A program made the translations under genes and the position numbers. Shown piece after piece: positions 23,738 to 32,828 of a stretch of 36,948 nt of DNA; position 1 is the stretch's first letter; every line of letters begins with the position of its first letter. The notes beneath the pieces are model-generated. The model was not told where the DNA came from, did not search any database, and was given only the letters and a program-made list of their open reading frames with translations. This stretch comes from a virus (lineage: Duplodnaviria > Heunggongvirae > Uroviricota > Caudoviricetes): IMG/VR virus record IMGVR_UViG_2778261353_000005; one strand, written 5' to 3'.

Positions 23738-25489
23738 ATGATTCAGGACGCTTTTGTGCGCCAGCGTGCGCGGCAACTTTACTGGCAGGGTTATCCGCCC
23801 GCAGAAATATCACGTCTGATGGGAATAAACCCGAACACGATTTATGCGTGGAAAAAACGCGACCAGTGGGATGAAACGCCACCCGTGCAGCGTGTCACGC
23901 AGTCCATCGATGCGCGCCTCATCCAGCTCACTGAAAAACAGAATAAAACAGGTGGTGACTTCAAGGAAATAGACCTGCTGACCCGGCAGCTTAAAAAACT
24001 GCATGATGGCCAGCCGGATGCGACGGCCACAGGAAAGAAAGGCCGGGCGAAAAAACTCAAAAATCATTTCACGCCGGAACAGATTGCCGCACTGCGGGAA
24101 AAAATCATCAGCAGGCTGGAGTGGCATCAGCGGGGCTGGTTTGACTCCCTGACCCTTTGCAGGGAAGCCGGGATACGTAACAGGATGATCCTGAAATCCC
24201 GACAGATTGGGGCGACCTGGTATTTTGCACAGGAAGCACTGCTGATGGCGCTGCGTGACGATGTGGCACAACCTTACCAGCGTAACCAGATTTTTTTGTC
24301 TGCGTCGCGTCGTCAGGCGTTCCAGTTTAAAAGCATTATTCAGAAGGCCGCGGCTGAAGTTGATGTGGAGCTGAAAGGGGGCGATAAAATCATCCTCTCC
24401 AACGGCGCAGAGCTGCATTTTCTCGGCACTTCTGCTGCGTCGGCACAGTCCTATACGGGCAATTTTTATTTTGATGAATTTTTCTGGGTCAGTCGCTTTG
24501 CTGAACTGCGCAAGGTGGCTGGCGCTATGGCAACCCTCAGCGGACTGCGGCGCACCTACTTCTCCACGCCATCCACCGAAACGCACGAGGCATACGTCTA
24601 TTGGAACGGCGACCGCTGGAACGAGAAAAAGGCCGCGCATAAACGCCAGCGTTTTTCTGTGGACTGGAAAACGCTGCATAACGGGCTTATCTGCCCCGAC
24701 CGGACGTGGCGGCAAATTGTCACGCTGGAAGATGTGGTTAATCACGGCTGGAAACACACCGATATTGATGAAATTCGTGATGAAAACACCGAAGACGAGT
24801 TCCGCAATCTCTATATGTGTGAGTTTGTCCGCGAAGGGGAATCGGCATTTAACCTGAATATCCTGATTGGCTGCGGTGTTGATGGATACGACGACTGGAA
24901 AGACTGGAAACCTTTTGCTCCCCGCCCGATGGGGAATCGTCCGGTATGGATTGGGTATGACGCAAACGGCAGCAGTGGCAACGGCGACAGCGGCGCTGTG
25001 TCCGTGGTGGTTCCTCCGGCTGTTCCTGGTGGCCGTTTTCGAACGGTGGAGACGCGACGCGTTCAGGGGCTGGAGTTTGAAGAACAGGCCAGAGTCATTG
25101 AAGAGTTCACGTATCGCTACAACGTGGAACACATCGGCATTGATGTGACGGGCGGGAACGGGGAGGCTGTTTATCAGATAGTGAAACGGTTTTTCCCTGC
25201 AGCTATTCCGTACACCTTCACCCTGTCATCAAAACGGTCGCTGGTACTGAAAATGCTGCAAATAATGCGTGCCGGGCGGTGGGAATACGATCGCGCCGAA
25301 CGCGAGCTGGTCGCGGCCTTTAACGCCGTGCGTAAGGTGAAAACACCGGGCGGCTTTATCACTTACGAAACGGACCGTGCGAGGGGGATCAGCCACGGCG
25401 ACCTTGCGTGGGCAACCATGCTTGCTGTCATTAACGAACCGATTGGCGGCGAAGGAGAAAACGAGCGTTTCACGGTTATGGAGTTCTGA
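23738..25489 (+). CDS. P: Terminase large (ATPase) subunit P
   Basis: 583 aa divergent from O; N-terminal HTH-like region then ATPase/nuclease-size body. Confidence 0.85.
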   Translation: MIQDAFVRQRARQLYWQGYPPAEISRLMGINPNTIYAWKKRDQWDETPPVQRVTQSIDARLIQLTEKQNKTGGDFKEIDLLTRQLKKLHDGQPDATATGKKGRAKKLKNHFTPEQIAALREKIISRLEWHQRGWFDSLTLCREAGIRNRMILKSRQIGATWYFAQEALLMALRDDVAQPYQRNQIFLSASRRQAFQFKSIIQKAAAEVDVELKGGDKIILSNGAELHFLGTSAASAQSYTGNFYFDEFFWVSRFAELRKVAGAMATLSGLRRTYFSTPSTETHEAYVYWNGDRWNEKKAAHKRQRFSVDWKTLHNGLICPDRTWRQIVTLEDVVNHGWKHTDIDEIRDENTEDEFRNLYMCEFVREGESAFNLNILIGCGVDGYDDWKDWKPFAPRPMGNRPVWIGYDANGSSGNGDSGAVSVVVPPAVPGGRFRTVETRRVQGLEFEEQARVIEEFTYRYNVEHIGIDVTGGNGEAVYQIVKRFFPAAIPYTFTLSSKRSLVLKMLQIMRAGRWEYDRAERELVAAFNAVRKVKTPGGFITYETDRARGISHGDLAWATMLAVINEPIGGEGENERFTVMEF

Positions 25490-26598: not shown

Positions 26599-26990
26599 CT
26601 GTATCAATCAGATAATTTCACGACGCTTTTCTGCTTATTGCCATCATCGGCGGTCAGACTCTTACGCAATCCCACCGCGTTGACTGCATGTTCTTCGCCG
26701 CCTCAGTGCGATTTTGACGGCCTTACCTTTCACCCCATCAAACCAGAATCCCTCACGTATTTTTCACGCTCAGCGTGAGAAATACGGCCATTCTGTCGTG
26801 TCGCTGCGACATCGTTAAGGGAACGCTATTTACCCCCTGAAACGCGGGCTGTTCCCCCGTCACCTGCGCGCAGAAAAAACGCGTTTTTTTGTGCACGTAC
26901 GGATCCTTGACGGATCCAGCCACCACGCGGGCCGGAAGTACAAAAAGTCGTTCAAAAAAATTGTGCAAACTTGTGCACTATCGTGCAAAC

Positions 26991-27012
26991 AAAAAAAGCG
27001 CCTTATCGGCGC
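26991..27012 (-). terminator. Intrinsic terminator ending the A-parM-parR/89-aa gene transcription unit
   Basis: On minus strand gcgccGATAAggcgc followed by TTTTTTT, 10 nt after the 89-aa gene stop. Confidence 0.6.
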
Positions 27013-27022
27013 TTCAAAAGTA

Positions 27023-27292
27023 TCAATTGTTGCTGTGTATTAATCGCCAACCACGAACATATGCTTCATAGGCATCTCTGTGCCTTACAGTTCCAGCCTG
27101 GCTAAACGGAATGTTAGCTAAAACTAAATCATTCTGAGCCATAGCGCGTCCTTCAAGCGCATCTTTTATGCCTAGCTCAAAAGCACAGGCAGCGCATTTG
27201 TGCCGACCTTCTTGTCCTTGATATTCAGGGAGAGACAGAAATGTTGGATTATAACGATGAGGGTTCTTGCAAATACCTGTTTTAGCCCGCAC
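27023..27292 (-). CDS. Hypothetical 89-aa cargo protein with own promoter (GTG start)
   Basis: ORF-track ORF; strong sigma70-like promoter about 200 bp upstream; no family recognised. Confidence 0.55.
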   Translation of the reverse strand: MRAKTGICKNPHRYNPTFLSLPEYQGQEGRHKCAACAFELGIKDALEGRAMAQNDLVLANIPFSQAGTVRHRDAYEAYVRGWRLIHSNN

Positions 27293-27313
27293 TTTATTTA
27301 CCTCATAGGAAAA

Positions 27314-27454
27314 ATATGCGTGCCTTTACAGAGGTGCGTGTAAGCAATAAAATATACGACGCACATTTTGATTTACTTCGGAAGGCACGCATATCAGGTT
27401 AAGTGAGTCCGACCGAGTTTTACGCCCCAATAGTTGCTGCTATTGGGGCGTTTT
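27314..27454 (+). ncRNA. Candidate structured cis-antisense RNA / leader element
   Basis: 13-bp perfect long-range stem (27314..27326 with 27382..27394), nested gtgcgt/acgcac stem, then cgccccaatag...ctattggggcg hairpin plus TTTT (27423..27454) that is a terminator only on the plus strand. Confidence 0.3.
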
Positions 27455-27500
27455 GCATGGACAATGCCGCGCAATTATCTTGTCGCTCACAATGCGAACG

Positions 27501-27528
27501 ATCTTACAAAAAGGCACATTACTGTCAA
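27501..27528 (-). promoter_or_regulatory. Sigma70-like promoter (TTGACA-16-TAAGAT) driving the 89-aa gene
   Basis: Minus-strand -35 and -10 hexamers read directly; followed by AT-rich palindromic operator-like sequence. Confidence 0.4.
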
Positions 27529-27656
27529 GATAATTGATCGTTTTAATCGATAGATAATAGACAATCTATTTGTTTAACAGATCGATTATTGAAGTAAGTG
27601 TGCCAAGTGGAATGATACTGTCTCTATAAACGTGAGCATTTTTCGCGCAGATGCTT

Positions 27657-27968
27657 TTACTCAGGAAATAACGCCCGGATATTCCCAGCCATCTGGCTGG
27701 TTATCTTAGCCACTGGTGCAGACTGTGCTTCAAACTTTTTTGAGCTGATTTGTGTCACAGGTAACATCTCATCATCAGCCCATGCGGCCAGTCGGTAAGC
27801 CTCTGCCGGATTCGTCTTCAGAAGTGCCAGCCCGGCCAGAAAAGCCACGCGTTGGCCGCTTTTGCGGGCTTCTGGTGTAAGGCTGTCCAGCCAGGCGCAT
27901 GCTTCTCCTTCGTTCTTGACGGCAGCTGGCTTCAGATAGAAACTTATCCGTCTGGTTGGTGTTGTCAT
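27657..27968 (-). CDS. parR: ParR-like centromere-binding protein
   Basis: Start 5 nt after parM stop with AAGGAG SD; RRISFYLKP...LDSLTPE...AFLAGLAL resembles plasmid R1 ParR. Confidence 0.7.
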   Translation of the reverse strand: MTTPTRRISFYLKPAAVKNEGEACAWLDSLTPEARKSGQRVAFLAGLALLKTNPAEAYRLAAWADDEMLPVTQISSKKFEAQSAPVAKITSQMAGNIRALFPE

Positions 27969-27972
27969 TGGT

Positions 27973-28932
27973 TTACTCCTTGTCCATTGCGTACAGCCCA
28001 TTAACCAGAGCAAACTGTGGCACCCCGTCCGCGATGAAAGTCGCATTAACTCCGCAGGCTTCGCGGATAGCGGGTGCCACAATCTCCGCCCCGCCACCGA
28101 CAACCATCACCCGCCCGTAACCCGAAAAACCCGCCAGCGCGCGGATCACGCGTTGTTTCAGTGTTTCTTCCTTTTCACGAATAACCGCCATCAGGCTGTC
28201 GTAATGCGCGTCATTGTGGATGTGCTGGCGCAGCCAGGCTTCATCATGGCGATGTTCGATAATGGTATTGGCGATGTGGTGACTGGTACGCATACCGTTA
28301 GTGGCCATCACCGACAGTACGGCATCGGCCATCAGGGAAACGCCTACGTGTGGATCGCAAAACACCTGGCTGATACCTGCCAGTTGTCCCTGAACCTTTG
28401 CCACATCCAGCGTGGTTCCGCCTAAATCCACAATCAGCAGGGATTCAAACGGACTCATGTCAGCCAGTGCTTTAAAGCCAGCCGGAATGGATTCAGGCAT
28501 AACCCGTACGTTACGGATAGTGAATGCTTCGCCGTTCTGGTACTCCACCGGGCGCATGACGTTCGCTTTTTTGCGGTTGATGTTGGCCATGTCCGGCTGT
28601 GCGTTTGTGTCGAAATATTCGCTCAGTGGCAGAGTGACAACCACATCCACTTCCTGTGGTGTGATGCCTGATTTGACCAGCGCGTGATGAATGGCAATGA
28701 CATTCACATCGCTGTACTGGTATTGCGTGTCGGTCGTCTGGACAAAGCGATCGCTGACCGGATCAAAACCATAGCGCACGCCATCAAGCATGTAGTTCGC
28801 GGGCTGCGTGCCACCGAACGGCGCAGACCATTCCGACTTGAAGCTGTTCGGGCTGATGGCGTTGCGGCGTTCGCCGTTCTCAGTCCATGCCAGCTTGATG
28901 TTGGTGGAGCCGTCATCGATACAAATTTTCAT
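27973..28932 (-). CDS. parM: ParM/StbA-like actin-family partition ATPase
   Basis: 319 aa; IDDGSTNIKLAW, ISPNSFK, YSDVNVIAIHHAL, NRKKAN, VMPESIPAG, LLIVDLGGTTLDV, GVSL, GFSGY, VMVVGGGAE, LVNGLY blocks as in R1 ParM. Confidence 0.85.
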   Translation of the reverse strand: MKICIDDGSTNIKLAWTENGERRNAISPNSFKSEWSAPFGGTQPANYMLDGVRYGFDPVSDRFVQTTDTQYQYSDVNVIAIHHALVKSGITPQEVDVVVTLPLSEYFDTNAQPDMANINRKKANVMRPVEYQNGEAFTIRNVRVMPESIPAGFKALADMSPFESLLIVDLGGTTLDVAKVQGQLAGISQVFCDPHVGVSLMADAVLSVMATNGMRTSHHIANTIIEHRHDEAWLRQHIHNDAHYDSLMAVIREKEETLKQRVIRALAGFSGYGRVMVVGGGAEIVAPAIREACGVNATFIADGVPQFALVNGLYAMDKE

Positions 28933-28963
28933 GTCGCTTTTCCTTATGTTGATTAATTAATCG

Positions 28964-29072
28964 CTTACGGGATTCTGAAATCCCGTTTTTGCCTGTTTTA
29001 TGCGCGCTTCATATATCGCGGCGCGTTTTTTGCTCATTTACGGGATTTGTGAATCCCGTTTCTGTCTGTTTT
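28964..29072. repeat. Two 36-bp direct repeats, each with a 20-bp palindrome (acgggatt..aatcccgt), upstream of parM; parC-like centromere/operator candidate
   Basis: Copies at about 28964..28999 and 29037..29072; second copy overlaps the last codons of gene A. Confidence 0.45.
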
Positions 29073-32506: not shown

Positions 32507-32685
32507 GGTGTGGCCCCTTGTGTAGTAAGTTGTGAAAACTCACCATCCAGAGCTGCGAAACTGTGGGTGGCGAGACGTACGAGGTTCGCAGTACCGGCTA
32601 CACAAGAACCCGGCCCGACCGAAGTCGGCCCCGTACGCCCCGCCATAATTCTGACGCGAAAAAAACGTGGCAATACAGTACGCAC

Positions 32686-32706
32686 AAAAAAACCGCTGGC
32701 GCGGTT
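32686..32706 (-). terminator. Possible intrinsic terminator/attenuator inside the early-operon noncoding island
   Basis: Minus strand aaccgc-gcca-gcggtt hairpin followed by TTTTTTT. Confidence 0.35.
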
Positions 32707-32828
32707 GTGCGCTTGTGTAGTCAGCAGGCTGCGAAACCCGGCACCCGTTTTGTGAGGTGCAGCGGAAATGTAACCTGACTGATTGCGGCATGGCAAGCGG
32801 TTTTTTTGTGTGTGCATGTTCTGGTTTC

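Follow-up and report, generated by a model that had tools for sequence, protein, structure and literature searches.

The gene for an 89-amino-acid (aa) protein carried by a P88-like (Xuanwuvirus, Peduoviridae), P2-like prophage of Escherichia coli appears to be the cargo of a self-contained, antisense-controlled moron and not one half of a canonical toxin-antitoxin pair. We analysed this gene in a stretch of 36,948 nucleotides (nt), IMG/VR record IMGVR_UViG_2778261353_000005; the whole stretch is called the window below, and its numbering is used for all positions. We give a probability of roughly 0.6 to the reading that the cassette encodes a small, basic, two-repeat Cys/His protein, accessory to GATC-methylation-linked defence, whose expression is controlled at the level of both RNA and DNA.

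A preliminary description, made from the letters of the window, had noted a stand-alone 89-aa gene. This was confirmed: the open reading frame (ORF) occupies 27292..27023 on the minus strand, with a GTG start codon and a GAGG sequence 8 nt upstream of it. The cassette and the gene are laid out as follows:

27003..27656, no strand: cargo (moron) cassette in a variable slot, from the parR-like gene to the cos-side backbone
27023..27292, minus strand: gene of the 89-aa protein, GTG start, two tandem repeats of ~35 aa, putative ligands C8/H12/C33/C36 (ORF and profile match)
26995..27015, minus strand: intrinsic terminator closing the gene, on the junction between cassette and backbone (stem GAAGCGCC/GGCGCTT, then TTTTTGTTT)
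27301..27304, minus strand: Shine-Dalgarno (SD) sequence GAGG, 8 nt upstream of the GTG, in a weak hairpin UUUUCCU/AGGUAAA (sequence and minimum-free-energy structure)

The boundaries of the cassette could be observed directly. In BLASTN comparisons with phage P88 and Citrobacter phage Shae_phiSM, homology of the backbone stops at 27002-27006 and restarts exactly at the parR stop codon (27657), and the same slot holds two different small genes in P88 and a membrane-protein gene on the opposite strand in Shae_phiSM. Because the backbone homology breaks at these points and other phages hold other genes there, we take 27003-27656 to be a discrete cargo cassette in a variable slot. The slot is flanked by conserved backbone genes, the order being terminase, portal, cos-side DNA, the cassette, Plasmid_stab_B (parR-like), parM and the gpA replication gene, and the cassette has a promoter and a terminator of its own, recognizable by their consensus matches and kept across lineages. 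Homologous cassettes stand at two classic moron positions, on the downstream side of cI in a P22-like phage and in the stretch that separates Q from the lysis genes in a Providencia phage, as well as in the identical parR-cos slot of the P2-like phages of loci L119-L123, whose parR is 54% identical to that of the window. The arrangement thus resembles known morons and defence hotspots (the P2 tin/old/fun slot, or the rexAB/bstA position downstream of cI) in its variable slot and its own promoter and terminator, but the gene of the 89-aa protein has no match in PADLOC. The 1.2 kb surrounding the gene are 98.8% identical to Escherichia phage 520873, and the entire cassette occurs in 166 of 5426 complete E. 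coli genomes (~3%), at 95-100% identity and chromosomal every time, the carriers including O157:H7, O111 and enterotoxigenic (ETEC) strains, among them O111:H- 11128, O157:H7 FRIK944 and ETEC B7A. The cassettes of E. coli 503025, B7A and 14EC047 are identical to that of the window.

The evidence for control by an antisense RNA comes from a comparison that covered some 60 divergent copies from prophages of the P2-like, P22-like and lambdoid kinds, with flanks taken from species-representative genomes and viral contigs. Across these copies the topology of the region upstream of the gene is kept while its sequence is not: Enterobacterales and Gilliamella prophages have a regulatory region of 170-200 nt before the gene, which falls into at least five sequence-divergent lineages. 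In the window this region contains the following features:

27325..27353, plus strand: antisense promoter, TTTACA-17-TAAAAT (scan match and conservation)
27360..27455, plus strand: predicted cis-antisense RNA of ~95 nt, fully complementary to the middle of the 5' untranslated region (5'UTR), with putative ends placed from the promoter and from the hairpin and its U4 tail
27422..27455, plus strand: perfect 12-bp GC hairpin (arms 27422-27433 and 27440-27451) followed by TTTT, putative terminator or 3' stem-loop of the antisense RNA
27382..27394, minus strand: 5' arm of a long-range 5'UTR stem, lying under the antisense RNA (13-nt perfect inverted repeat)
27314..27326, minus strand: 3' arm of the same stem, beginning in an invariant GTAAAG (13-nt perfect inverted repeat)

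The plus-strand promoter at 27325-27353 had been overlooked in the preliminary description and supplies the start of the antisense RNA proposed there. Of the 67 unique upstream sequences, 55 have a TTTAC(A/T)-17-TAnnnT element (with a spacer of 18 nt in one) on the antisense strand, at a distance of 28-41 nt before the start codon. Its -10 hexamer takes eleven forms (TAAAAT, TACGAT, TAGAAT, TACAAT, TAGACT, TAGTCT, TAATCT, TAAACT, TACTCT, TAACCT and TAGTAT), and since the T, the A and the final T stay constant while the interior varies, the element bears the marks of a promoter under selection; its conservation explains the invariant GTAAAG of the sense strand. Conservation is what makes this promoter and the sense promoter described below significant, because the frequency of promoter-like sites in our scan (2 in 1.6 kb vs 1.8 expected by chance) matches that of shuffled sequence. 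In a fifth lineage (L031, L033, L034, L048 and L051; Klebsiella, Citrobacter, Buttiauxella) we observed GATCATGTAAACC about 70 nt upstream of the gene, which read in antisense is TTTACA directly followed by GATC, with a weak CACAAT -10 that the TAnnnT pattern misses.

The GC hairpin had been described as carrying its U-tract on the opposite strand only, and indeed the sequence after it reads TTTTG on the plus strand and AAAAC on the minus strand, the tail being only four U long. All lineages have a GC hairpin in the same place with a different stem sequence and, within one lineage, double compensatory changes were found in 5-9 of 15 sequences per pair. In the lineages checked, UUUCC or UUUUG follows the hairpin on the antisense strand and an A-rich tail follows it on the sense strand. 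In imperfect stems, what is a C-A mismatch in the sense RNA is a G-U pair in the antisense RNA; internal G-U pairs number 7 on the antisense strand vs 2 on the sense strand, and the hairpin is more stable on the antisense strand in 19 of 29 versions. This comparison of the strands leans towards the antisense strand, and is not decisive. The predicted antisense RNA folds at -35.6 kcal/mol (z = -4.2) and would cover a part of the leader that starts ~40 nt after the mRNA 5' end and stops at least 68 nt short of the start codon, with no overlap with the ribosome-binding site. Taken in silico, an antisense RNA of ~95 nt is well supported.

Alternatively, no such RNA would exist: the GC hairpin would only give structure or stability to the sense leader, or would insulate against transcription entering from the cos side, and the gene would be a plain moron with a long leader. 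This alternative is difficult to square with a TTTACA-17-TAnnnT element kept with fixed spacing amid varying -10 interiors and unrelated flanks. It is consistent with the short U-tract, the failed terminator scan, a promoter scan of the window no better than chance and the 10 of 29 hairpin versions that are more stable on the sense strand, but imperfect hairpins give the antisense strand G-U where the sense strand would have C-A, and the tail of the sense strand is A-rich and not U-rich in the lineages checked. We therefore regard this alternative as very improbable.

The mRNA is predicted to start near 27494, which gives a leader of ~201 nt, in agreement with the earlier estimate of ~200 nt. 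This leader folds at -71.4 kcal/mol, compared with -54.9 +/- 4.1 for shuffled sequences (z = -4.0), and the 13-bp long-range stem noted in the preliminary description was recovered as a perfect inverted repeat (27314-27326 / 27382-27394). Sampled lineages have a topologically equivalent stem made of different sequences, whose 3' arm always starts in GTAAAG; its partner, the 5' arm, is located 40-70 nt further upstream under the antisense RNA, so that antisense transcription is placed to start in the loop of the stem. A hairpin occluding the SD sequence is found in most lineages and is strong in several. When the antisense-covered stretch was forced to be unpaired in silico, accessibility of the SD sequence fell in 11 of 19 representatives, and that of the start codon in 13 of 19. 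RNAalifold, run over all lineages together, gave a consensus fold devoid of pairs, their divergence being too great for an alignment, and per-lineage and topology analyses were used instead. A leader peptide or mok-like ORF was rejected, there being no conserved leader ORF and the 34-codon TTG frame of the window being missing from most lineages. Rfam gave nothing in 26950-27700, at gathering threshold or at E up to 10, beyond hairpin-only matches, and nothing in six homologous cassettes. STnc1310, a non-coding RNA located downstream of cI in prophage ST64B, was considered as a lead and set aside, ST64B having no homologue of the 89-aa protein in our phage search.

These elements suggest how the cassette may work. 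The mRNA would begin ~201 nt upstream of the GTG and its leader would form the long-range stem, with a weak hairpin occluding the SD sequence. The convergent promoter in the stem loop would make the ~95-nt antisense RNA, ending at the GC hairpin and able to pair with the 5' arm and with the part of the leader that precedes the stem. Pairing of this RNA would remodel or destabilise the leader, or else convergent transcription would interfere with the sense promoter, and in either case protein synthesis would be low. A GATC site overlapping the sense -10 and another flanking the -35 would allow the Dam methylation state of the host to tune the promoter.

At the RNA level the arrangement recalls type I toxin-antitoxin loci. 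As in tisB/istR-1, zorO/orzO and hok/sok, a small gene with its own promoter has a long structured leader, with a ribosome-binding site that would be occluded in most lineages though only weakly in the window, and a predicted short antisense RNA, made from a convergent promoter, that would pair upstream of this site. The preliminary description had proposed the architecture of a type I toxin-antitoxin or of an antisense-controlled cargo gene, and the two halves of this proposal fared differently. As an antisense-controlled cargo gene the locus appears well placed, being a discrete cassette in a variable slot with an antisense promoter and a one-sided hairpin kept across at least five divergent lineages. 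For a type I pair, an antisense RNA with a promoter and a terminator of its own is predicted in silico, but the product is a hydrophilic protein of 89 aa that belongs to a large Cys/His family, no mok-like ORF accompanies it, and the predicted antisense RNA leaves the ribosome-binding site uncovered. It is neither a small hydrophobic membrane peptide, which in type I systems is usually under 60 aa, nor of a known nuclease type (SymE, RalR). A true type I system, in which the protein would inhibit growth (in a Dam+ host perhaps through its binding to GATC-rich DNA), the antisense RNA would be the antitoxin and the pair would serve prophage stabilisation or abortive infection, would account for a conserved cis-antisense RNA directed against a long structured 5'UTR with an occluded SD sequence, for antisense pairing upstream of the ribosome-binding site as with IstR-1/tisB and OrzO/zorO, for the weak GTG start codon and for the location of the cassette in positions used by exclusion and abortive-infection genes. 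It also fits the copy of the gene in phage 503458 (NC_049341.1, about 24996-25169), unannotated and matching in two pieces that cover 65% of the protein, which is probably frameshifted. However, nearly all E. coli and IMG/VR copies are intact, the protein has no membrane segment and no PADLOC match, and relatives in many phyla are co-transcribed inside restriction-modification operons, where the upstream module is not found. A type I reading thus suits the RNA architecture and not the protein, and we consider it unlikely.

The protein itself is a member of a large family. A remote homology search, suggested in the preliminary description, gave a full-length match to PHROG 3941 (function unknown; E 6.3e-49) but no match in Pfam above noise, in PDB or in BFVD; NCBIfam and PADLOC gave none either. 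An exhaustive HMMER search returned 172 clusters at 50% identity, and a profile search 1598 clusters at 90% identity, spread across many phyla; all 120 of the family matches listed are unnamed or labelled 'hypothetical'. The invariant residues of the family are C8, H12, C33 and C36, R30/H31 and Q65/R70/H71. The two halves of the protein are homologous (hhalign probability 97%, E 5.8e-11), and the Cys ligands are retained only by the first half. The protein is hydrophilic, with a grand average of hydropathy (GRAVY) of -0.57, no transmembrane window and a maximum of 0.58 for 19-residue Kyte-Doolittle windows, and it has a net charge of +4 (12 K+R vs 8 D+E). Its AlphaFold2 model has a mean confidence score (pLDDT) of 88. 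From the pattern of conserved residues, the protein probably binds zinc through its Cys/His ligands.

What the family may do is suggested by the loci of its relatives. Among 80 species-level loci, about 32-39 (some 40%) have the family gene in or beside a DpnII-type GATC restriction-modification operon encoding a D12 Dam-like methyltransferase, the DpnII endonuclease and an N6_N4 methyltransferase. This linkage, which was directly observed, spreads over Bacteroidota, Firmicutes, Spirochaetes and others, and the remaining loci have mixed contexts, frequently mobile elements. The place of the gene inside the operons varies, and it is often last or on the opposite strand. The family domain is also found fused: C-terminally to DndB, inside DpnII-type operons; N-terminally, in some cases as a tandem pair of half-units, to nuclease domains of the NOV_C/DUF3883 or HNH_2 type; and to a WYL domain. 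Chitinophagaceae/Bacteroidota DpnII operons (L020 2849-5996, L082 2864-4261 and L019) show the fusion of DndB to the family domain, and L020 has in addition a NOV_C nuclease bearing two tandem half-units. Neither the restriction-modification linkage nor the fusions or the regulatory module appear in the description of PHROG 3941, which the protein matches over its full length and with its invariant residues. Most likely the 89-aa protein binds nucleic acid and serves GATC-methylation-linked genome-defence systems as an accessory or regulatory module, as far as its relatives, domain fusions and charge indicate. The upstream RNA module, with its promoters and hairpin, was not found at the relatives in restriction-modification operons, and in the window the gene is flanked by parR and the cos-side backbone, with no restriction-modification genes adjoining it. 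A phage-borne Dam was rejected, since the annotation of the near-identical phage 520873 shows no methyltransferase.

GATC sites also mark the DNA upstream of the gene, which contains the following features:

27501..27528, minus strand: sense promoter, TTGACA-16-TAAGAT, with a GATC overlapping the -10 (TAAGATC) (scan and conservation)
27530..27589, no strand: AT-rich imperfect dyad of 26 nt, candidate operator (arms 27530-27555 and 27564-27589, 73% complementary)
27497..27583, no strand: three GATC sites around the sense promoter (27500-27503, 27536-27539 and 27580-27583)

The promoter and its setting are as the preliminary description had them: TTGACA (27528-27523) and TAAGAT (27506-27501), separated by 16 nt, match the consensus at 10 of 12 positions, and they stand in AT-rich DNA (28% GC) with an imperfect 26-nt dyad that has a perfect core, TAATCGAT/ATCGATTA. 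Relatives have TTGnnn-16/18-TAnnAT 165-201 nt upstream of the start codon. The large dyad is limited to the lineage of the window and L119-L123, and there it moves with the cassette, being 75% identical in L119-L123 despite a diverged leader and a parR of 54% identity. This difference led us to reject the dyad as a parMR centromere, as did the comparison with P88, where homology (~90% identical parR-parM DNA) ends precisely with the parR stop codon. The sense promoter is flanked by an 11-nt perfect inverted repeat, CAATTATCTTG/CAAGATAATTG (27472-27482 and 27526-27536), with one arm overlapping the -35 and the other at about +12 to +22; it is not kept in L119-L123, the closest diverged cassettes.

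The three GATC sites of the window sit within 84 bp, one over the -10 (TAAGATC, 27506-27500), one 7 nt upstream of the -35 and one in the dyad, and the AACGATC/GATCGTT arms that contain the first two bracket the core of the promoter. Other lineages have TAGGATC or TATGATC at the sense -10, essentially all have a GATC 6-8 nt upstream of the sense -35, and sites at or just after the sense -10 and next to the antisense -35 are frequent across lineages. In 19 representative upstream regions GATC is the most enriched of all 256 4-mers, with 71 occurrences against 16 expected from dinucleotide shuffles (z = 15.2, the next 4-mer having 7.3); this z-score is inflated by kinship among the cassettes, and every lineage still has 2-5 sites per 260 nt. 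The hosts in the records are enteric and related Gammaproteobacteria, the group that carries Dam. By analogy with pIN of IS10, the promoters may be Dam-sensitive, and the cassette is probably modulated by Dam. Like IS10, with its RNA-IN/RNA-OUT pair and Dam control at pIN, the cassette combines a GATC overlapping the sense -10 with a predicted convergent antisense RNA. RNA-OUT covers the 5' end and the ribosome-binding site of RNA-IN, whereas the predicted antisense RNA of the cassette covers the middle of the leader only; the gene, moreover, is not a transposase.

The association with GATC comes from two independent observations, the operon linkage in other phyla and the GATC-dense control regions in Dam+ hosts, which together are suggestive and do not establish that the 89-aa protein binds GATC. 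If it did, it could be a controller-type transcription factor that regulates its own gene by binding to the GATC-bearing dyad at the promoter and senses whether GATC is methylated. Such a role would fit a two-repeat, pseudo-symmetric protein linked to DpnII operons, the GATC enrichment, and the conserved dyad and the promoter bracketed by GATC that accompany the gene. The likeness to the controller (C) proteins of restriction-modification systems extends to a small gene embedded in DpnII-type type II operons of many phyla, but the 89-aa protein, unlike them, has no helix-turn-helix (no such Pfam match and no PDB fold match) or other known DNA-binding fold, being a Cys/His two-repeat protein without PDB relative, and its gene is not consistently upstream of that of the endonuclease, its position varying as described above. 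Further, the large dyad is confined to one lineage, and the restriction-modification operons show no enrichment or clustering of GATC, which led us to reject a GATC operator inside them. Since GATC clusters are missing from those loci, GATC may mark Dam regulation only and not the target of the protein. A controller role appears doubtful, if somewhat less so than a type I toxin.

A bolder proposal would join both levels. The ~85-aa two-repeat Cys/His protein would be an unrecognised DNA-binding fold that reads GATC or N6-adenine methylation, serving DpnII-type systems of many phyla alone or fused to nucleases or DndB; temperate phages of Dam+ Enterobacterales and Orbales would have captured it as a stand-alone cassette, with its synthesis under Dam-sensitive convergent promoters and a cis-antisense RNA. 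There it would exclude superinfecting phages or control the prophage, as an epigenetic sensor or effector. We hold this to be speculative, and about as unlikely as the type I reading.

Several points weigh against the antisense-controlled moron that we prefer. The two RNAs, ends included, are predicted; the U-tract of the antisense terminator is only 2-4 nt long, and the 4-U tail of the window failed the terminator scan. The strand comparison of the hairpin is weak. The hairpin at the SD sequence is weak in the window, where the in silico blocking described above changed accessibility negligibly (0.42 to 0.48). As for the protein, it has no recognisable fold relative, DNA binding would follow only from domain fusions and charge, and the GATC sites are not clustered in the restriction-modification-linked loci.

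The surroundings of the cassette offer further observations. Annotation of the gene in RefSeq is uneven, identical cassettes having a 'hypothetical protein' in some E. coli genomes and no feature in others. In L119 (3334-3621; also in L120 and L122) the family gene is followed by an additional ORF of 95 aa and ~690 bp, both missing from the window. The adjacent parR-like gene (27657-27971) and parM (27973-28932) form a ParM/ParR-type plasmid partition pair inside an integrated P2-like prophage; the gap between gpA and parM is only 76 bp (28933-29008), with no obvious centromere repeats seen, and parM is 97-99.7% identical among relatives whose parR is only 48-55% identical. The conserved cos-side backbone has, just outside the cassette (26957-26990), the direct repeat (A/C)TTGTGCA(A/C) / ATCGTGCAAAC in three copies at close spacing, a possible protein-binding site near cos. 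Elsewhere in the window, Rfam matches at gathering level to the C4 antisense RNA (32563-32650, minus strand, 83 bits) and to the Hfq-binding RNA isrK (32686-32760, minus strand, 64 bits) lie side by side, a pair that looks like a P1/P7-type antisense immunity element in a P2-like prophage. At the end of the phage 520873 record (NC_049344.1, 37476-37583) a 'MokW-like host killing' gene, of the hok/sok type I toxin-antitoxin kind, is annotated.

A cis-antisense RNA directed against a structured leader, and GATC in a promoter, are known principles; here they would form a conserved, portable module shared by unrelated temperate phage types and absent from Rfam. The family, with ~1600 clusters at 90% identity in many phyla, has no counterpart in Pfam, NCBIfam or PDB. 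In the literature that we could search there was nothing on the protein accessions, on Xuanwuvirus cargo or on small DpnII-associated proteins, and no description of the family or of its linkage to DpnII-type operons and its nuclease and DndB fusions. Knowledge of what the protein does could show that restriction-modification systems have a new accessory or sensor component, and could define a new class of prophage cargo, one that ~3% of complete E. coli genomes carry.

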